From an uncultured Candidatus Saccharibacteria bacterium (lineage in GTDB: Bacteria; Patescibacteriota; Minisyncoccia; Phycocordibacterales; SW-6-46-9), in the NCBI GenBank assembly GCA_964534365.1, contig CAZHOI010000001.1, positions 188,171 through 252,170 on the forward strand: 64,000 nt of DNA. The letters are read 5' to 3'. Under the pieces are notes generated by a model, which saw only the letters and a list, made by a program, of their open reading frames with translations, was not told where the DNA came from and ran no database searches. This document shows, piece after piece, positions 4,151 through 60,886 of the stretch (position 1 is the stretch's first letter; the number at the start of each line of letters is the position of its first letter). Position numbers and translations under genes: made by a program.

Positions 4151-4574
4151 AATTAAATTGTTAGTTAGTAACTGGTGTAAGGATTGTAGAAAGCACAAAA
4201 CCCGCAACCAGGTGAGCCGAAGCTCATACGACAGTTTCCCATCGCAACATTAGACACGCCCTGATTACGGGGTTTCTGTGTCTAATGATTTGCAACCATG
4301 CCGACTCTATCGAGGAGGGTTAGGTTGGTAGGTCTATTTTACACCAAAATTTGTCCACTATCCTTGGAACACACAAAAACTAGTTAGCAGGACATTAGCA
4401 GGATAAAGTCAATCTAGAGGACTATTTAAAAACACAAAACAGTAGAAGTAACAGAGAAAGTTTTTAATTTTATGTACCTATTCTTATATGGCAAAAATAA
4501 TAAATAATAGTAAAAAAACGGTAGGAAAACCATAAATACAGTTTTTAACTAAACTAACATGGTACATTTTACAT

Positions 4575-7276: not shown

Positions 7277-9514
7277 TTAATCGAAAAAATCGTCGTCGGA
7301 AATATCAGATTCGCTAGCTTCAGTTGATAGATCACTGCCGTCATCAGTGCGGATATAGACCACTGATGGTCCGCAGCTGGTTGCTTCAGTACCAACAGCA
7401 GTTTGAGTTACAACAGCACTGTAATTGGAATCAATACAACCAAAGAAATCTGGATTAGGTAGTGGTAATTGCACTAGGAATTCGCTGTTAGCTGCATTAC
7501 ATGTTGCCTGAACTCCTGTATTAGTACTGACAAAATCACGCAATTCTTGCACCGCATCACTGGCACAAAAATTGTTGAAACTACCCTCATTATCGCGATA
7601 AACCGATGCATCACTGCCTAACAAACGCAGACGATCCATAATTACCACCTCTTCACCAGGACCTAATTGTTGCAAAATGGAAATAATTTCATCTGATGGA
7701 ACCACGTTTGGTGGAGCAGTTATGGCTGATCCTGTGTAATCGTAATCAAACGAAATATTGATATTGCTGGCTCCAGATTGGTGAATTAATTGTGCGTCAA
7801 CCTCTTGAATCAGTCGTGTATTTCGGTCGATTTGCGCCTGTCCTTCAACTGATAACAAACCACTATAATCAAACATATCATTAAAGAAAGCGGTGTTTTG
7901 CGGGATGCGCGAGTTAAAACTATCAACATCAAAACTAAAATCAAACATATCCACTGCACCACTGGCACCATCTATGGTATTTTTATATTCAAATTGTAAA
8001 ACATCACTGTTATAAAGGTCGGTTAAAGAACTGGATACAGCGTTTACCACATCAGATAAATTAGTAGGGGGATTTCCTGACAATAGCGACAGCACTGACG
8101 ACACGTCACCGTCGCCCTTGATTTCGAACCATTCATTGGGGACCTGATCCAGTGGACTTACGTTTGGTAGTTCCCTGAATTTGGCAAATGACCGGCTGCC
8201 ATCATAGGCAAAGTCCAGCGTAATCTCGCCTAAACTAGCACTAAACCCATTTTTATTTGATTGAGTGTTTACCAAACCCCTTACATTGATTGGCAATGTA
8301 GTAGAATTGGCAACCGCTGCAACGGCCGGCGGGGTGTCGGCAGTAGGATTATTAATATTAAGCGGCAATTCACCTGAGGCAGCATATGAAACATATTGCA
8401 CCGTATCAAATGCACTTATGATTTGGTCCGGGGAATAATCAGGGGTAGTACCAATTAATCGCGGTAGAAAAGTTGCGGCGGCAGCGGCGAGGGCAACCAG
8501 AAGCAATATAGCAATCACCAGAATAGTTATTTTTTTATTTTTTGATTTATCGGTCGATTGTGATTGAAGTTTAGCTTTAGGATTGGCATTTAAAGACTGA
8601 CGGGGCAATCTAGCAGATTGTTTCATCGTATTACCTTTAACCGATGGTCGGTAAACTAAACCTGAGTTTTCGGTTTGAGTCGGTTTATTTTGCTCAGGTT
8701 GAATACGCATTTGGTCATTTGATTCACGACTATCAGACAAAGCTCGCTTCTTATCCGCAGAGGCCGCAGAGACCAATTTATTTGGTGATTGACCAGGCTC
8801 TTCCCCTTTGCCTAACGAACTATTGTCATCAGTCGATTTATTTAACTGCCAATCAGCTGCGCGGCGATATTTGATATTACTGGCTGATTTAGGTTCAGCA
8901 GTATTAGGTGATCCTAATACATCAATAGGAGTTGCGGCAGCAGAACGCTGGACAGGACTCGTATTAAATTGCTCTGGCTGTTTTCCCTGCTCTGTTGCGG
9001 GGGCTTGATTGGTTCGATTAGTTTGGGACTTATTATCTCTGTTTTGATTTAATCCTTCTACCCTAGTTACTGAATCAGTATTATTGCCAGTATCATTTAG
9101 AGTAATATTATCCCCTTGATTAATAGTAGATTGTTGTAGCTTTTGCCTGAGTTGTTGCAGATTTTCAGCTGCATTGGATCCAGTACTTGATTGGACCCCG
9201 GACTGTGTCGCATTACTTTTATCATTGCTATCGGGACCACTAGTGTCGGCGGTCGAGTCATCAGCAGATTTTTTATTCCCTGTAGCCGAATTATCTGAAT
9301 TATCACCAACTTCAGCTGAACCAGTTCTGGATTGATCAGAGGCCAGATTATCTGAGGTGTCATTTTCGCTAGCAACGGTATCAACCACTCCAAACGCTTC
9401 ATTAATATCATCACCGGTCCAACCGGCTTGCAGCAGGGTCATTTTTATCGAATTTTTATCCACTCCGCGGTTTTTTTGATATTCAACGTAGCGCAATAAT
9501 TCTTCGGTAACCAT
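7277..9514 (-). CDS. Membrane-anchored protein: small cytoplasmic N-domain, low-complexity S/T/N/Q linker, one TM helix, large extracytoplasmic domain
   Basis: 745-aa ORF; TM segment ITILVIAILLLVALAAAAATFLP; acidic C-terminus. Confidence 0.6.
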   Translation of the reverse strand: MVTEELLRYVEYQKNRGVDKNSIKMTLLQAGWTGDDINEAFGVVDTVASENDTSDNLASDQSRTGSAEVGDNSDNSATGNKKSADDSTADTSGPDSNDKSNATQSGVQSSTGSNAAENLQQLRQKLQQSTINQGDNITLNDTGNNTDSVTRVEGLNQNRDNKSQTNRTNQAPATEQGKQPEQFNTSPVQRSAAATPIDVLGSPNTAEPKSASNIKYRRAADWQLNKSTDDNSSLGKGEEPGQSPNKLVSAASADKKRALSDSRESNDQMRIQPEQNKPTQTENSGLVYRPSVKGNTMKQSARLPRQSLNANPKAKLQSQSTDKSKNKKITILVIAILLLVALAAAAATFLPRLIGTTPDYSPDQIISAFDTVQYVSYAASGELPLNINNPTADTPPAVAAVANSTTLPINVRGLVNTQSNKNGFSASLGEITLDFAYDGSRSFAKFRELPNVSPLDQVPNEWFEIKGDGDVSSVLSLLSGNPPTNLSDVVNAVSSSLTDLYNSDVLQFEYKNTIDGASGAVDMFDFSFDVDSFNSRIPQNTAFFNDMFDYSGLLSVEGQAQIDRNTRLIQEVDAQLIHQSGASNINISFDYDYTGSAITAPPNVVPSDEIISILQQLGPGEEVVIMDRLRLLGSDASVYRDNEGSFNNFCASDAVQELRDFVSTNTGVQATCNAANSEFLVQLPLPNPDFFGCIDSNYSAVVTQTAVGTEATSCGPSVVYIRTDDGSDLSTEASESDISDDDFFD

Positions 9515-46996: not shown

Positions 46997-47048
46997 TTGT
47001 TTATTAGTTATACAAAACCATTATACCGCACTTCTAAATCCTTTATGA

Positions 47049-47113
47049 AAGGGTGCCAAAAAGGGTGCCATGCCAAAAAGGGTGCCAAAAGGGTGCCAGG
47101 GACATTTGCGTTA
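47049..47113 (+). repeat. REP-like repeat cluster, left flank of RAYT (tandem AGGGTGCCAAAA units, then GGTGCCAGGGACATTTGCGTT)
   Basis: Inverted relative to the copies at 47784-47840. Confidence 0.6.
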
Positions 47114-47749
47114 ATCTTGTTTTGTTGTCTTGTTAAATTCTTCGTGCCAATTCAACTCAGCAAATGGCTTTGATTTATTTACGCTGTGGCAAACAGCGTC
47201 GCGCTCGGATTCAGTTAAAGGTTTGTTAAGATCATTTAAATATGTGTCTGGTATGTCGATTGGTGGATTTGTTAAATATTTGTTTTTAATTCTGCTTTTC
47301 CCATTACTGCGCAGCCAGGCACTGCCCCAGCGCCAGTCTTCAGCCTTTTCACAGAGACCAGCTCGCAGAGCATTACGCTCGACATACCGCAGTGTTGTAT
47401 AGAAATAATTATCATCGCCAATTAAAAATGATTTGTACCTGCCTTGATATAAATGCCCGTAACCGACTTGATCATGCATAGATTTATACTGTTTTACATG
47501 AGTATTAGTCAGTCGGTTCATAAATTTAGATAAATCACCATTTATTCGAGGTGACAATATCAAATGCCAATGATTGGGCATAATGCAATACCCCAGTAAC
47601 CTCATATCTATCAATTCAACTGTTTCAAATAGTAAATCGTTAAAACATTTATAATCATCATAACTATTGAATATTTGTCTTCTCCCATTACTACGATTAA
47701 GTACGTGATAATAATAGTTTGCTAAATCTATTCGAGGCTGGCGTGGCAT
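47111..47749 (-). CDS. REP-associated tyrosine transposase (RAYT; IS200/IS605-like Y1 HUH transposase, COG1943)
   Basis: MPRQPRIDL...YHV.NR.N....IF...DDY..F..LL...NHWHLIL (HuH)...GHLYQGRYKS (catalytic Tyr region). Confidence 0.8.
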   Translation of the reverse strand: MPRQPRIDLANYYYHVLNRSNGRRQIFNSYDDYKCFNDLLFETVELIDMRLLGYCIMPNHWHLILSPRINGDLSKFMNRLTNTHVKQYKSMHDQVGYGHLYQGRYKSFLIGDDNYFYTTLRYVERNALRAGLCEKAEDWRWGSAWLRSNGKSRIKNKYLTNPPIDIPDTYLNDLNKPLTESERDAVCHSVNKSKPFAELNWHEEFNKTTKQD

Positions 47750-47783: not shown

Positions 47784-47840
47784 CAAACGTCCCTGGCACC
47801 TATTATGGCACCTATTACAAACGTCCCTGGCACCTATTAC
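47784..47840 (-). repeat. REP-like repeats, right flank of RAYT (two copies of AAACGTCCCTGGCACCTATTA)
   Basis: Reverse complement GGTGCCAGGGACGTTTG matches the left-flank repeat. Confidence 0.6.
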
Positions 47841-47908
47841 GGTAGCTTTTGCAAACAAAAAACTCCCCATAAGGAGAGTTGATTGTTTAGATTAGAAGTT
47901 AAGACAAC

Positions 47909-56473: not shown

Positions 56474-56902
56474 TTATCGCAATAGTGATTCGTCAACCTC
56501 GGTTATTTTTACACTGTCAACCACCGCCAGGTCGAGCAATTCAGCAACTGCGCCTACCATTGAAGCTATAAACGCTGCCACTGCAGCATATAATGCAATC
56601 TGAGACATCCGCAAGCTTTGTTCGGTACGTTGGTGGCTAAAATAAACCCCACGACCATAAAGTGATAGCATTCTGGTAGCTTCGATTGTAGTTTTGTTAT
56701 CATTATTTTTGACCCGGGGGAAATAATTTTTCAAAATATGTTCACGTAATAGCATTTCTGCCTCGTCATTATCTAAATCAAGGTCCAATCTCATCTGATC
56801 GATGCTAAATTTATTTTTTTCTTTGGCATATTTTAAACAGCGATAAAACATATCAGCTTCGAGGCTGACTAGTTTGATCGTTGGAAACAACCTAGTTAAC
56901 AC
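56474..56902 (-). CDS. Hypothetical protein with C-terminal hydrophobic segment
   Basis: 142-aa ORF. Confidence 0.45.
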   Translation of the reverse strand: MLTRLFPTIKLVSLEADMFYRCLKYAKEKNKFSIDQMRLDLDLDNDEAEMLLREHILKNYFPRVKNNDNKTTIEATRMLSLYGRGVYFSHQRTEQSLRMSQIALYAAVAAFIASMVGAVAELLDLAVVDSVKITEVDESLLR

Positions 56903-56947: not shown

Positions 56948-57154
56948 TTATTTGATCACGTATGGCATTAATGCCATGAATCGAGCGTGCTTTATTGCTT
57001 TGGTGAGCGAGCGTTGGTTATTTGCGTGTGTTCCGGTCACCTTGGCCGGCATTATTCGACCGGTCGCATTTACAAATTTTTTCAGTGTTGCGATATCTTT
57101 GTAATCAATGTGATTGATATTGTGTTTTTGGAAGTAGTCTTGTCCTTTTGCCAT
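56948..57154 (-). CDS. rpsR: 30S ribosomal protein S18
   Basis: [50 protein letters not shown]. Confidence 0.85.
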
Positions 57155-57193
57155 ATCTTTTTTCGTTAGATAATTTTAGAAAATTATCTGCCT

Positions 57194-57225
57194 CATGGCA
57201 TAGATTTTTTTACAAAATCTATTAG
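57194..57225. repeat. Palindromic motif ATGGCATAGATTTTTTTACAAAATCTATTAGC, copy 2 of 2
   Basis: Near-identical to 21331-21361; lies 40 bp upstream of the rpsR start. Confidence 0.5.
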
Positions 57226-57508
57226 CAGTCATAATCTAAAATTTTTACTTTAATTAATATTATTTTGATTTTTATTTAGATGAAGTACGCGGCTCAAAAA
57301 AAATTAATTTGGAAGCGTATGCGCAATACGATTAAAAATTAATTATTATGCAGCAACAAAGTAATTCGCTAAATAAATTTTTAATAATTATTTTAGTAAA
57401 TTTAGACAATGAAATTCGAGGAAGTAGAGAATATTTTGGAGACATATATATAATACGTTGAGGAAATTATTAAACGCTACTGACCAAGAATTTCGAAGTA
57501 TCAATTTT

Positions 57509-57955
57509 CTAAAATGGGATGTCGTCGGGATTGATAGTAGACTCTGGATAATCAATCTCTTTAGATTTAGAATTTGATTTATTATCCGATCCCCCATCAT
57601 TTGATTTGCTGGAACTAGATGATCCACCCGAGCCCTTTGGTCCAAACTGAACCCGATCTGCTACCACTTCGGTTCGATAACGTTTTTGACCGTCTTGCTC
57701 CCATGACCTAGTTTGAATACGTCCTTCGATCAGGGCCATGGATCCTTTCTTCAAGTACTGCGCAGTAGTTTCAGCCTGTCGCCCAAATACCACAATGTTA
57801 TGGTAATCGGTTTGTTCTTGACGTTGTCCTTGACCATCAGTATAGGTTCGATTGGTAGCAATGGAAAACGAAGCCACTTTTACTCCTGAGGGTAATGATT
57901 TTAATTCGGGGTCTCGTGTTAGATTGCCGATTAATAATGCTTTGTTTAGATACAT
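57509..57955 (-). CDS. ssb: Single-stranded DNA-binding protein
   Basis: OB-fold N-terminus, Gly/Ser-rich linker, C-terminal DDIPF tail. Confidence 0.9.
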   Translation of the reverse strand: MYLNKALLIGNLTRDPELKSLPSGVKVASFSIATNRTYTDGQGQRQEQTDYHNIVVFGRQAETTAQYLKKGSMALIEGRIQTRSWEQDGQKRYRTEVVADRVQFGPKGSGGSSSSSKSNDGGSDNKSNSKSKEIDYPESTINPDDIPF

Positions 57956-57972
57956 ATAATTATTGTATCAAA

Positions 57973-58455
57973 CTATTCTTCATTTTCTTCTGTTTTTTGC
58001 TCCGTTTTTGGTTCCGTATTATCCTCGCCTTCTGATTCTTCATCGTCTGATTCGTCTTCAAACTCTTCTTCATCAGGGTTATATTCGTCAGTCAAGGTTG
58101 TAACAAAATCCTCGCGAGTGGTTTTAATAATTAAAAACCTGATAATTGATTTGTTAGCCTTGATAGTTGATTCTAAGTCGCTAATTAATTCTGGATCTTG
58201 TTTGAATTTAATCCAATTGAAATAAGCATCTTTATAATCCCGGCGTTTACCTTCAGTTTTAACGGTGATCTCATAAGCCAGATTACGCAATCTGGGTTCA
58301 CCACTAGAAAGCACCGCGCCGGATCCCTGAGCGACCGTGTCGCCCAATGAAGTGAATAGTTTGTCCACTTTGTCTTCGGAAAGCTTGGGGTCGACCAGAG
58401 TTGCTAGTTCATAGACCACCAGCTTGGAATCCTGGTTTTGGTTATTTTCTGTCAT
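57973..58455 (-). CDS. rpsF: 30S ribosomal protein S6 with acidic C-terminal tail
   Basis: S6-like core (VVYELATLVDP...RLRNLAYEI...); conserved rpsF-ssb-rpsR order; start taken at MTENN (58455) because the ORF-track start lies inside the repeat. Confidence 0.8.
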   Translation of the reverse strand: MTENNQNQDSKLVVYELATLVDPKLSEDKVDKLFTSLGDTVAQGSGAVLSSGEPRLRNLAYEITVKTEGKRRDYKDAYFNWIKFKQDPELISDLESTIKANKSIIRFLIIKTTREDFVTTLTDEYNPDEEEFEDESDDEESEGEDNTEPKTEQKTEENEE

Positions 58456-58474
58456 AACTCGCCGATTGTAACAT

Positions 58475-58551
58475 GTCATCCGTCATCCGTCATCCGTCAT
58501 CCGTCATCCGTCATCTGTCATCCGTCATCTGTCATCTGTCATCTGTCATCT
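58475..58551. repeat. Heptanucleotide tandem repeat (GTCATCC/GTCATCT) x 11
   Basis: Eleven perfect 7-mer units read directly from the sequence, between the tatD stop and the rpsF start. Confidence 0.9.
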
Positions 58552-58553
58552 GT

Positions 58554-59369
58554 TTAAAGATTGAACACTCGTCTGGCGTTGGCCACCAACTGCATTTGAA
58601 AGCTTTGCAGTGATTTTTCACCTCTAATCATGAATAAAGCTTTGATGACTTCATCAACATATAGGGGCGAGTTTTGTTTACCTCTATGAGGTACAGGCGC
58701 AGCATAAGGGGCGTCAGTTTCTGCATGAATCATATCTGATGGAATATATTTAATAACTTGATCATAATCACGAGCAAACGTAATTGGACCATCAAATGAC
58801 AAGGTAAAATTAAGATCCAAAAAACGCTTGGCTATTTCCCGATTACCGACAAAAAAATGCACGTTACCTGGCCATTCCGGTAGCTCGTCCCTCCGTTGGG
58901 ATAAAATTTCAATCATATCCAGATACGCATTCATGGTACCTTTGGAAGGGCGACCATGTAGCATTAGTGGTAACTGAAACTCTGCGGCTAATTCAATTTG
59001 TTTCCTTAAGTTATTTACTTGGACATCGTAAACTCTATCACGTGGCGTTCGATAGTAATCCAGTCCACACTCCCCAATTGCTATAATCTTTTTTTTAGCC
59101 AAATGGTGCCTGAGGCCTCCTGAGTTAACACCGAGTATACTTCGATATATCGCAGTATCAAAGTCATTTAATTCAGTCGGGTGCTGACCGATAGTGGCCC
59201 ATATATTTTCATGCTTATTAGCCAACTCCACCGCAGCTCGCGAAGTTTCAATATTAGTCCCGACAACAATTGTTCCCCAATTTCGATTTTCTAATTCCTG
59301 AATCACCTCTACTCGAGAATTATCAAAGTCTGCAAACTGCAAATGACAATGGATGTCAATTACCTTCAT
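58554..59369 (-). CDS. tatD: TatD-family metal-dependent hydrolase/DNase
   Basis: MKVIDIHCHL N-terminal motif, GECGLDY, His/Asp metal ligands. Confidence 0.85.
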   Translation of the reverse strand: MKVIDIHCHLQFADFDNSRVEVIQELENRNWGTIVVGTNIETSRAAVELANKHENIWATIGQHPTELNDFDTAIYRSILGVNSGGLRHHLAKKKIIAIGECGLDYYRTPRDRVYDVQVNNLRKQIELAAEFQLPLMLHGRPSKGTMNAYLDMIEILSQRRDELPEWPGNVHFFVGNREIAKRFLDLNFTLSFDGPITFARDYDQVIKYIPSDMIHAETDAPYAAPVPHRGKQNSPLYVDEVIKALFMIRGEKSLQSFQMQLVANARRVFNL

Positions 59370-60886
59370 TTTCGGGGGAACAAATTATCAGGCTTTGCCC
59401 TTTCATCAATAGCGTGCATAATTTTTTGTGCTGTGTCGGGCAAAGCTGGTTGCAATAAAACCGCCAATTCGTGCAACCGTATCGCGCAATAGGCAACATC
59501 GGCCTTGGCCTTAACTTCATTAGTTTTAATTGTTTTAAAAGGTTCTTCGGTTGCAATATATTCGTCCAAGGCCCCTAGTTCTGACCACAACCAATCCATA
59601 GCTTCATTAAATTTAAAATTGTTGATTAAACCAAAATATTTAATAGCTTCATCACTAGCAATAATTTCAGCTTGATCTTGTACCCCATAATCGACTTCAT
59701 ACTGTTCTGCCATAGTAAGTACCCGAGAAACTAAATTACCTAAACCATTTACTAGTCCGGATTGATAAGCGGCAGCAAAACGATTAGCGGTTACGTCAGA
59801 ATCATCTATTGGGTGGACGTGCCGTAATAGATAATATCGCAAGGCATCAGTGCTATAATCAGAAATTAAATTAAATGGATCAATGACATTTCCAATTGAT
59901 TTAGACATTTTCTGACCCTCTGAATTAATAAAACCATGATAAAACACCCGATCGGTTGGCTGTAATTCAGCTGACATCAGCATCGCCTGCCACATTAGCG
60001 ATTGCATGCGCACCTGGTCCTTGCCAGCAAATTGCACGGTCTCTGCTTCATTCCAAAACTCTTCAAATAAATTGGTTGCCCCATCTTCTGTCTCGACGGG
60101 TTTATCCAGCATTTTTTCTCCCCGAGAATTATTCTGAGCCGCGCCCTCTGGGGCCTTGGCGTAGGTGGGCCACCCTAAAGTAGAAATATAATTTGTTAGA
60201 GCATCGAACCAAACATACATTACATGATCATCGTCACCTGGCACAGCAACCCCCCAATCCAGTTGGTCGCGATGTCGTGAAATTGAGAAATCTTCCAATC
60301 CACCGGACACAAAAGACCTGGCCCAGTCGCGTTGATGGTTAGGTATCACCGTTTTTTCATCACTTAAATAATCCAGCAAAGGCTGTTCGTAGCGCGAGAA
60401 TTTAAAGAAATAATTTTCGGTGGTTACTTCTTCAGGTTTCTTATTGTGATCAGGACATTGACCATCAACTAAATCACGATCAGTAAGAAAAAGTTCGCAA
60501 CCGACACAATACATACCCGTAAATTGTTTTTTATAAATATCCCCTGCCGCCTCGCAGCGACGCCACATTTCTGTTGCTGCTAATTCGTGTTCGGGATCGG
60601 TAGTGCGTATAAAAGTATCGTTCGAGATATCAAATTGCTGCAGTAGATTTTGAAATTCATTTGCGTATTGATCAACGTATTGTTTGGGATCTTGACCTTT
60701 CTCCCCCGCCGCTTGTTTAATTTTCTGACCATGCTCATCAGTGCCGGTATTAAAAAAAACATTATGGCCCTGTAATCGCAAAACCCTGGCGTAATAATCC
60801 GCCTGGACAAATTCAAGGGCATGCCCAATATGAGGACGTGCATTCACATATGGCAAAGTAGTGGTTAAATAATACGATTTTGTCAT
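59366..60886 (-). CDS. metG: Methionine--tRNA ligase
   Basis: HIGH-type motif PHIGHA, KMSKS motif, zinc-knuckle Cys cluster. Confidence 0.9.
   Translation of the reverse strand: MTKSYYLTTTLPYVNARPHIGHALEFVQADYYARVLRLQGHNVFFNTGTDEHGQKIKQAAGEKGQDPKQYVDQYANEFQNLLQQFDISNDTFIRTTDPEHELAATEMWRRCEAAGDIYKKQFTGMYCVGCELFLTDRDLVDGQCPDHNKKPEEVTTENYFFKFSRYEQPLLDYLSDEKTVIPNHQRDWARSFVSGGLEDFSISRHRDQLDWGVAVPGDDDHVMYVWFDALTNYISTLGWPTYAKAPEGAAQNNSRGEKMLDKPVETEDGATNLFEEFWNEAETVQFAGKDQVRMQSLMWQAMLMSAELQPTDRVFYHGFINSEGQKMSKSIGNVIDPFNLISDYSTDALRYYLLRHVHPIDDSDVTANRFAAAYQSGLVNGLGNLVSRVLTMAEQYEVDYGVQDQAEIIASDEAIKYFGLINNFKFNEAMDWLWSELGALDEYIATEEPFKTIKTNEVKAKADVAYCAIRLHELAVLLQPALPDTAQKIMHAIDERAKPDNLFPRK

Follow-up and report, generated by a model that had tools for sequence, protein, structure and literature searches.

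The window analysed here, by which we mean the whole 64-kb stretch of DNA, carries the genes metG and tatD followed by rpsF, ssb and rpsR, all on the minus strand. The metG gene (59366-60886, minus strand) and the gene of a tatD-family hydrolase (58554-59369, minus strand; PF01026) overlap by 4 nt, the 5' end of tatD covering the metG stop, and the stop codon of tatD itself lies 2 nt from a heptanucleotide tandem array of 11 units and 77 nt (58475-58551), the sense strand of which is the minus strand. The first gene past the array is rpsF (57973-58455, minus strand; PF01250), encoding ribosomal protein S6 of 160 aa, and it is followed by ssb (57509-57955, minus strand; PF00436), which has its own TGATACAAT box 6 nt ahead of the ATG, and by rpsR for ribosomal protein S18 (56948-57154, minus strand; PF01084). 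The only terminator-like hairpin of the region is found after rpsR (56852-56869), and none was predicted between tatD and rpsF. The rpsF start at 58455, which had been proposed in the preliminary description of the locus, agrees with the JGI gene call of 160 aa and with the N-terminus common to the relatives (MTENNQNQDS or MKENNQNQDS). A longer ORF of 168 aa starting at 58479 is an artefact: position 58479 is the ATG of the last array unit, which happens to be in frame with rpsF.

On the plus strand, positions 58475-58551 read (GTCATCC)5-GTCATCT-GTCATCC-(GTCATCT)4, so that the 11 units, their coordinates and their composition match exactly what the preliminary description had given, and the gene positions likewise bear out its view of a heptanucleotide microsatellite in the intergenic gap that runs from the tatD stop to the rpsF start. 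Read 5' to 3' in the sense direction, the array is (AGATGAC)4-GGATGAC-AGATGAC-(GGATGAC)5, all on the minus strand: a block of four AGATGAC units (58551-58524), one GGATGAC (58523-58517), one AGATGAC (58516-58510) and a promoter-proximal block of five identical GGATGAC units (58509-58475). A partial unit AC (58553-58552, minus strand) precedes the first block, and with it the array touches the tatD stop codon (58554-56). The complete sense strand from tatD to rpsF is therefore TAA-AC-(AGATGAC)4-GGATGAC-AGATGAC-(GGATGAC)5-A-TGTTACAAT-CGGCGAGTT-ATG, with a single nucleotide separating the array from the TG of an extended -10 box and 19 nt separating it from the rpsF ATG. With head-to-tail units, a length beyond chance and a non-coding position, it qualifies as a simple sequence repeat (SSR, or LSSR). 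Tandem Repeats Finder (TRF) assigned it a period of 7, 10.9 copies, 95% matches and a score of 124, the highest of any tandem repeat in the window, and found no other heptamer array of more than 3.1 copies in the 64 kb. A search of the window with a two-unit pattern, allowing at most one mismatch, gave 10 matches, all within the array, against 0.03 expected; none of 100 shuffles reached that number, and no second two-unit copy was present outside the array in the 64 kb examined. Elsewhere in the window, tandem repeats at 47048-47098 and 47784-47856 flank a gene for a 212-aa protein (47111-47749), one with a 17-nt unit in two copies (TGCCAAAAAGGGTGCCA) and the other with a 34-nt unit in 2.1 copies with GGCACCTATTA four times; a GGCACC/TGCCA-type word occurs in both, and judging from this shared word they may be protein-binding sites.

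The same 11 units were found in contigs from JGI samples 3300040789 (L001 and L005) and 3300040798 (L004), and every assembly that spans the array has this number. Contigs from other samples with the same TatD or S6 protein were 100% identical to the window, and the 90% protein clusters of S6 and TatD contained a single clonal genotype only. Three further contigs (L002, L003 and L006) start or stop inside the (GGATGAC)5 run. We considered these breaks as a sign of length heterogeneity and rejected this, since the perfectly periodic stretch in the array is 41 nt and exceeds a k of 29-31 (Logan k-mers of 31 and a k=29 graph), which probably makes the breaks uninformative; the overlap of L003 and L006 is 28 nt, matching a loop in a k=29 graph.

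Between the array and rpsF lies an extended -10 element, TGTTACAAT (58465-58473, minus strand), which is a perfect match to TGnTAnAAT, is conserved and is situated 9 nt before the ATG. The 9 nt from the box to the ATG, CGGCGAGTT (58456-58464, minus strand), are rich in G+C and presumably resemble the discriminator of stringently controlled promoters. No Shine-Dalgarno sequence is present at rpsF, and from the usual distance between a -10 box and +1 we infer a transcription start at about 58456-58459, which would make the rpsF mRNA leaderless or leave it a leader of at most 4 nt. With +1 at about 58458, the array would be upstream promoter DNA, covering approximately -17 to -93 up to the tatD stop. 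TGAC is the core of TTGACA, and every array unit carries it; the copy within ATGACG at 58488-58493 (minus strand) is located 17 bp from the -10 box, and by its position this unit could serve as the -35 element. A promoter scan scored ATGACG together with TGTTACAAT at 9 of 12 matches with the TG present ahead of the -10, a scan that by itself is not significant for consensus promoters (12 sites against 9.6 expected). The prediction draws support from two independent lines, the conservation of the box among the relatives and the recurrence of this layout at other gene starts of the window, both given below. Since the conserved -10 box comes after the array, just 9 nt ahead of the ATG, the array would lie outside both the 5' UTR of transcripts starting at the rpsF promoter and the -35/-10 spacer. 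The predicted start lies downstream of the repeat, which would speak against the preliminary description, in which the array was supposed to tune promoter or UTR spacing; with the -10 box on the rpsF side and the five proximal units identical, this role was not supported. Given the predicted start, the geometry also differs from that of phase-variable repeats of the hmw, nadA or uspA2 type, in which the repeat is in the -35/-10 spacer or in the leader.

The layout at rpsF fits what seems to be the rule in this organism. A -10 hexamer of at least 5/6 matches ending 4-11 nt upstream was found at 22 of 46 gene starts in the window, compared with 5.4% of random positions, and among these starts the spacing from box to start codon is mostly 6 nt; examples are the minus-strand starts at 9514, 18573, 21989, 32448, 47749, 57955 and 63909. 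Among 19 aligned starts, TG was present at -15/-14 in 14, and a -35-like hexamer (at least 4/6) at 16-18 bp in 8, against 2.7 expected (P=0.0035). Shine-Dalgarno sequences are scarce in the window. A -10 box beside the start codon at about half of the genes implies leaderless mRNAs, and leaderless transcription from extended -10 promoters appears to be the default. In this way the analysis exposes the promoter grammar of a poorly sampled lineage, namely TGnTAnAAT at a distance of 6-9 nt from the start codon, Shine-Dalgarno sequences being absent. In one respect the rpsF promoter departs from the others: the 35 nt upstream of its -10 box have an A+T content of 43%, whereas the mean for 18 other leaderless-type promoters is 67% (minimum 49%). 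The array is thus compositionally atypical, and this could weaken or otherwise modify the predicted promoter.

Homologues of the S6 protein are rare: a collection of 5.8 billion proteins contained 8 clusters of them at E<=1e-10, and the lineage is very sparsely sampled. The upstream DNA could be compared for six lineages with S6 identities of 60-75%. In all six a -10 box is found 6-10 nt before the ATG and a Shine-Dalgarno sequence upstream of rpsF is absent, and GTT ATG is invariant in 7/7 lineages. The -10 region is TGTTACAAT in L007, TGGTACAAT in L013, TGCTACCAT in L143 and TACAAT in L149, each with 9 nt between box and ATG, while it is TGGTATAGT in L141 with 10 nt and TATAGT in L014 with 6 nt; L007 and L013 have the extended -10 in the form TGnTACAAT. 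At the -35 position the relatives have TTAACT or TTGTTA at the same distance, as read by eye. The array at the junction of tatD and rpsF is absent in all six. In L014-L019, which are contigs of a marine sister lineage from TARA Oceans and related sources, three genes on the opposite strand separate tatD from rpsF; they form a cassette of 1.6 kb and encode an Imm11-domain protein, an unknown protein of 143 aa and a second Imm11-domain protein, and this makes the junction a permissive insertion site in the relatives.

The window has 98 nt between tatD and rpsF where L007, L013 and L143 have 42 nt, and the additional 56 nt equal exactly 8 units. The residues that flank the array (TAA-AC...A/C-TGnTAC) are common to L143 and L007, and the 24-nt spacer of L143 can be written as AC-ATTTAAC-TTTTAAC-CTTAAAC-C, which reveals a latent period of 7 nt, (NTTTAAC)x3, in register with the array. 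The lag-7 identity of this spacer is 69% (p of about 2e-4, surviving correction for 55 tests), and in L007 the 7-nt periodicity is weak (p=0.08); the degenerate periodic spacers span positions 700-742 in L143 and 2958-3000 in L007. Periodicity in the same register suggests an origin in situ, and these degenerate spacers may represent the proto-repeat of the array. Within the array, the A and G variants of the unit, which differ at position 1, are grouped in blocks, as is expected when a point mutation is followed by block expansion. The blocks of two variants and the exact 8-unit excess over the relatives agree with the earlier suggestion of a microsatellite prone to slippage, and we infer that the array arose by amplification of the proto-repeat in situ through slipped-strand mispairing.

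The array has little potential as coding sequence or as structured RNA. TGA occurs in each of the three sense frames once per 21 nt of array, so the array is not translatable, and we rejected its translation, as the preliminary description had also favoured a role other than coding; the antisense ORFs that run over it are artefacts overlapping tatD and rpsF. Folded as RNA, it forms less structure than shuffled versions do (z=+2.35) and its centroid is unpaired, and Rfam gave no match at the gathering threshold and only noise at E<=10, on which grounds a structured leader or a known RNA family was rejected. An autoregulatory leader in the rpsF 5' UTR, that is, an RNA bound by S6:S18, has no counterpart here, as structured RNA is lacking and the predicted leader is at most 4 nt.

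All lineages examined share, in the spacer between ssb and rpsR (57155-57508 in the window), a conserved extended hairpin of about 88 nt with four nested helices. The window has two tandem copies of it (57276-57512, minus strand), copy A at about 57404-57512 and copy B at about 57276-57384. Across six copies 90% of the cells pair, compared with 29-43% when partners are slid, and compensatory changes are seen in 14 of 25 pairs against 2-5 when slid. There was no Rfam match for this hairpin, and it is a candidate for a new cis-regulatory RNA. It may be an autoregulatory site for S6:S18 which, rpsF being leaderless, has been relocated to a place ahead of rpsR. About 40 nt separate the rpsR ATG from another conserved hairpin, GCTAATAGATnT...AAATCTATGCCATnAGGCA. 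At the other end of the window, a match to the LOOT RNA (RF03000) was found at 4213-4326 (minus strand) with 64.6 bits against a gathering score of 46.4.

The explanation that we favour, and hold with modest confidence, is that the array is a lineage-specific and probably near-neutral SSR which fills the spacer upstream of the promoter, incidentally provides a -35-like element and is buffered against changes in length. The array would have grown by slipped-strand mispairing inside a short spacer between tatD and rpsF, and its growth would have been bounded by selection on the tatD stop codon at one end and on the -10 box TGTTACAAT at the other. The promoter would be of the extended -10 type, for which the proximal array unit could act as a -35. 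Gain or loss of units within the identical proximal block would leave positions -17 to about -51 as they are, including ATGACG at 17 bp; only the spacing from tatD and the place of the AGATGAC block would shift. Since the five proximal units are identical, slippage should not touch the core promoter, and an unstable repeat would thereby be tolerable in front of an essential operon. We see no dedicated regulatory function, at most a -35 contact and the replacement of the usual A+T-rich upstream DNA.

An alternative is that the array is an expression rheostat or contingency locus in which a unit number changed by slippage modulates transcription of rpsF-ssb-rpsR, either by moving or phasing the upstream DNA and the end of tatD relative to RNA polymerase, by altering A+T-rich contacts or by changing the local DNA structure. 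Repeats upstream of the promoters of phase-variable genes are known parallels for such a mechanism. Perfect runs of 4 and 5 units, with 11 in total, stand directly beside the promoter, and the composition of the array is unlike that of the other promoter-upstream regions of the window. Heptanucleotide repeats can also be highly mutable and control expression, as with (ATCTTTC)n of hmw1A (PMC12721329), and duplication and loss of GGTGCCC have been described in pflu0185 (bioRxiv 2024.05.01.592015). However, proximal unit changes would leave -17 to about -51 intact, so that the classical spacing mechanism cannot operate, and the array is absent in all relatives. All assemblies that span the array have 11 units, and the contig breaks are probably explained by the periodic stretch exceeding k. 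Contingency loci are typically surface or restriction-modification genes, whereas S6, SSB and S18 are essential housekeeping proteins, and no surface, host-interaction or restriction-modification gene of the phase-variable kind is found downstream of the array. We therefore consider a rheostat unlikely.

It could also be that the array acts as RNA in transcripts reading through from metG and tatD into rpsF, or that its units are bound by a protein with affinity for single-stranded RNA or DNA, as has been proposed for the TAACTGA repeats; we judge this to be quite unlikely. With no terminator-like site between tatD and rpsF, transcripts of metG-tatD that read through would carry the array with its 11 AUGs and many UGAs. 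The units, (A/G)GAUGAC, combine AUG, UGA and an SD-like GGA, and could offer a standby or decoy platform for ribosomes or a chain of overlapping mini-ORFs, by which the translation of tatD would be coupled to, or insulated from, that of rpsF, which has no Shine-Dalgarno sequence. There are indeed nine mini-ORFs of the form MTDD[RG]* with AUGA stop/start overlaps, the last AUG (58479) being the one in the rpsF frame, and because the array is unstructured it would be accessible. TAACTGA repeats are likewise found 5' of genes without Shine-Dalgarno sequences in Beggiatoaceae, where a translational role has been proposed (PMC4679880). Against this, the predicted promoter that rpsF has to itself is conserved and only 9 nt away from the ATG, so the main mRNA would be without the array, and the end of the array at 19 nt from the ATG is away from the position of a ribosome-binding site. 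In the 64 kb examined it is a single locus and no member of a dispersed family, and the relatives function without it. The chain of mini-ORFs was rejected as a switch depending on unit number, since chains are present at odd and even numbers alike.

A bolder version, in which the array is a hypermutable length module that sets the level of S6, SSB and S18, either by way of the upstream contacts of the promoter or by capturing ribosomes on tatD transcripts that read through, seems very unlikely to us. If it were true, the array would be a heritable and reversible dial for growth rate or replication in a streamlined bacterium with leaderless mRNAs, and no contingency-type repeat would have been known before on an operon of core ribosomal proteins. 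That the array is an artefact of assembly or sequencing, or the remnant of a mobile-element insertion, is almost certainly wrong, for although three contigs end or begin in it, the same 11 units occur in independent assemblies of different samples, the size difference from the relatives is an exact multiple of 7, and inverted repeats, a target-site duplication and an ORF are absent from the array. A mobile-element remnant, an iteron and a CRISPR-like repeat were rejected as array classes in any case, as there are neither inverted repeats nor spacers and the unit is too short.

Our preferred reading of a slippage-born and near-neutral repeat is supported by the occurrence of the same heptamer elsewhere. 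Arrays of GATGACRGATGACRGATGAC were present in at least 120 unrelated JGI metagenome contigs of 35-72% G+C, with 3-27 units, and the window locus was not among the matches listed. Among these matches, the arrays often mix in GAGGACA, GAAGACA, GACGACG or GATAACG. Counting all GANGACR-type arrays together (GATGACR, GAGGACA, GAAGACA, GACGACG and GATAACG), at least 120 contigs are involved (L021-L140); some, such as L044 and L059, contain inverted partner arrays able to form long hairpins, and L062 has four copies of a composite element containing an array of this type. No clear rule of orientation relative to ORFs was seen, with 40 sense and 32 antisense upstream positions in a crude count of the matches listed. 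The appearance of the heptamer in unrelated contigs without a consistent gene context indicates a recurrent product of slippage and not a lineage-specific element.

Several heptanucleotide repeats of bacteria resemble the array in part. In Haemophilus influenzae, the (ATCTTTC)n repeats of hmw1A and hmw2A also have a 7-nt unit, about 11 or more copies and a position upstream of a gene start (PMC12721329). The hmw repeat governs an adhesin and is transcribed as part of the 5' UTR, where it base-pairs with a G-rich arm into a long hairpin that RNase III cleaves (PMC12721329). The array in the window, by contrast, sits 5' of the -10 box, shows no structure as RNA and stands ahead of essential genes for ribosomal proteins and SSB. 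In Pseudomonas fluorescens pflu0185, a 7-nt unit amplifies in situ and produces a local mutational hotspot (bioRxiv 10.1101/2024.05.01.592015), but that repeat is coding and acts by frameshifting, while ours is non-coding.

Dispersed families offer another comparison. The TAACTGA repeats of marine Beggiatoaceae, some Cyanobacteria and Bacteroidetes (MacGregor 2015, PMC4679880) are, like the array, sense-strand heptamers preceding genes without Shine-Dalgarno sequences, ribosomal-protein genes among them. When the unit is rotated to GATAACT, it agrees with GATGACR of the array at 5 of 7 positions, and units of GATAACG and GATGACG are mixed in some of the metagenome arrays among the matches listed. 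The TAACTGA repeats, however, come in 169 sets per genome, each of 2-6 copies and a few nt from the start codon (PMC4679880), in contrast to one array of 11 units with a promoter -10 box between it and the ATG. The cyanobacterial STRR and the GGGNATC repeats of Xanthomonas and Nostoc are similarly intergenic heptamers between co-oriented genes, but they belong to dispersed multi-copy families, and GGGNATC prefers four units and forms G-quadruplexes (PMC4692102). GGATGAC has only GG runs and no G3 tracts, and the array is single-copy in the window. Thus, the many arrays that define the STRR, TAACTGA and GGGNATC families were not seen in the 64 kb examined, and the array has neither the ribosome-binding-site position of TAACTGA nor the G-quadruplex potential of GGGNATC.

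The closest match is the class of LSSRs with units of 5-11 nt (Mrazek et al. 2007, as presented in PMC4679880), which according to that account are likewise head-to-tail, intergenic, longer than expected by chance, sporadic in their phylogenetic distribution and attributed to slippage, and among which heptamers are the commonest long SSR class in prokaryotes. As far as that account describes the class, nothing essential differs, except that here there is one array per 64 kb instead of a repeat-rich genome, and that it stands flush against a -10 box. As a heptanucleotide SSR in intergenic DNA the array is ordinary, but its position is unusual. By itself it carries little weight, adding one further slippage-born heptanucleotide repeat to those in bacterial intergenic DNA, and if its unit number should be variable it would be a convenient strain marker. 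It is mildly instructive in that an unstable repeat is tolerated against the promoter of essential ribosomal-protein and SSB genes, apparently since its units themselves resemble a -35 element and the promoter belongs to the leaderless type with an extended -10.
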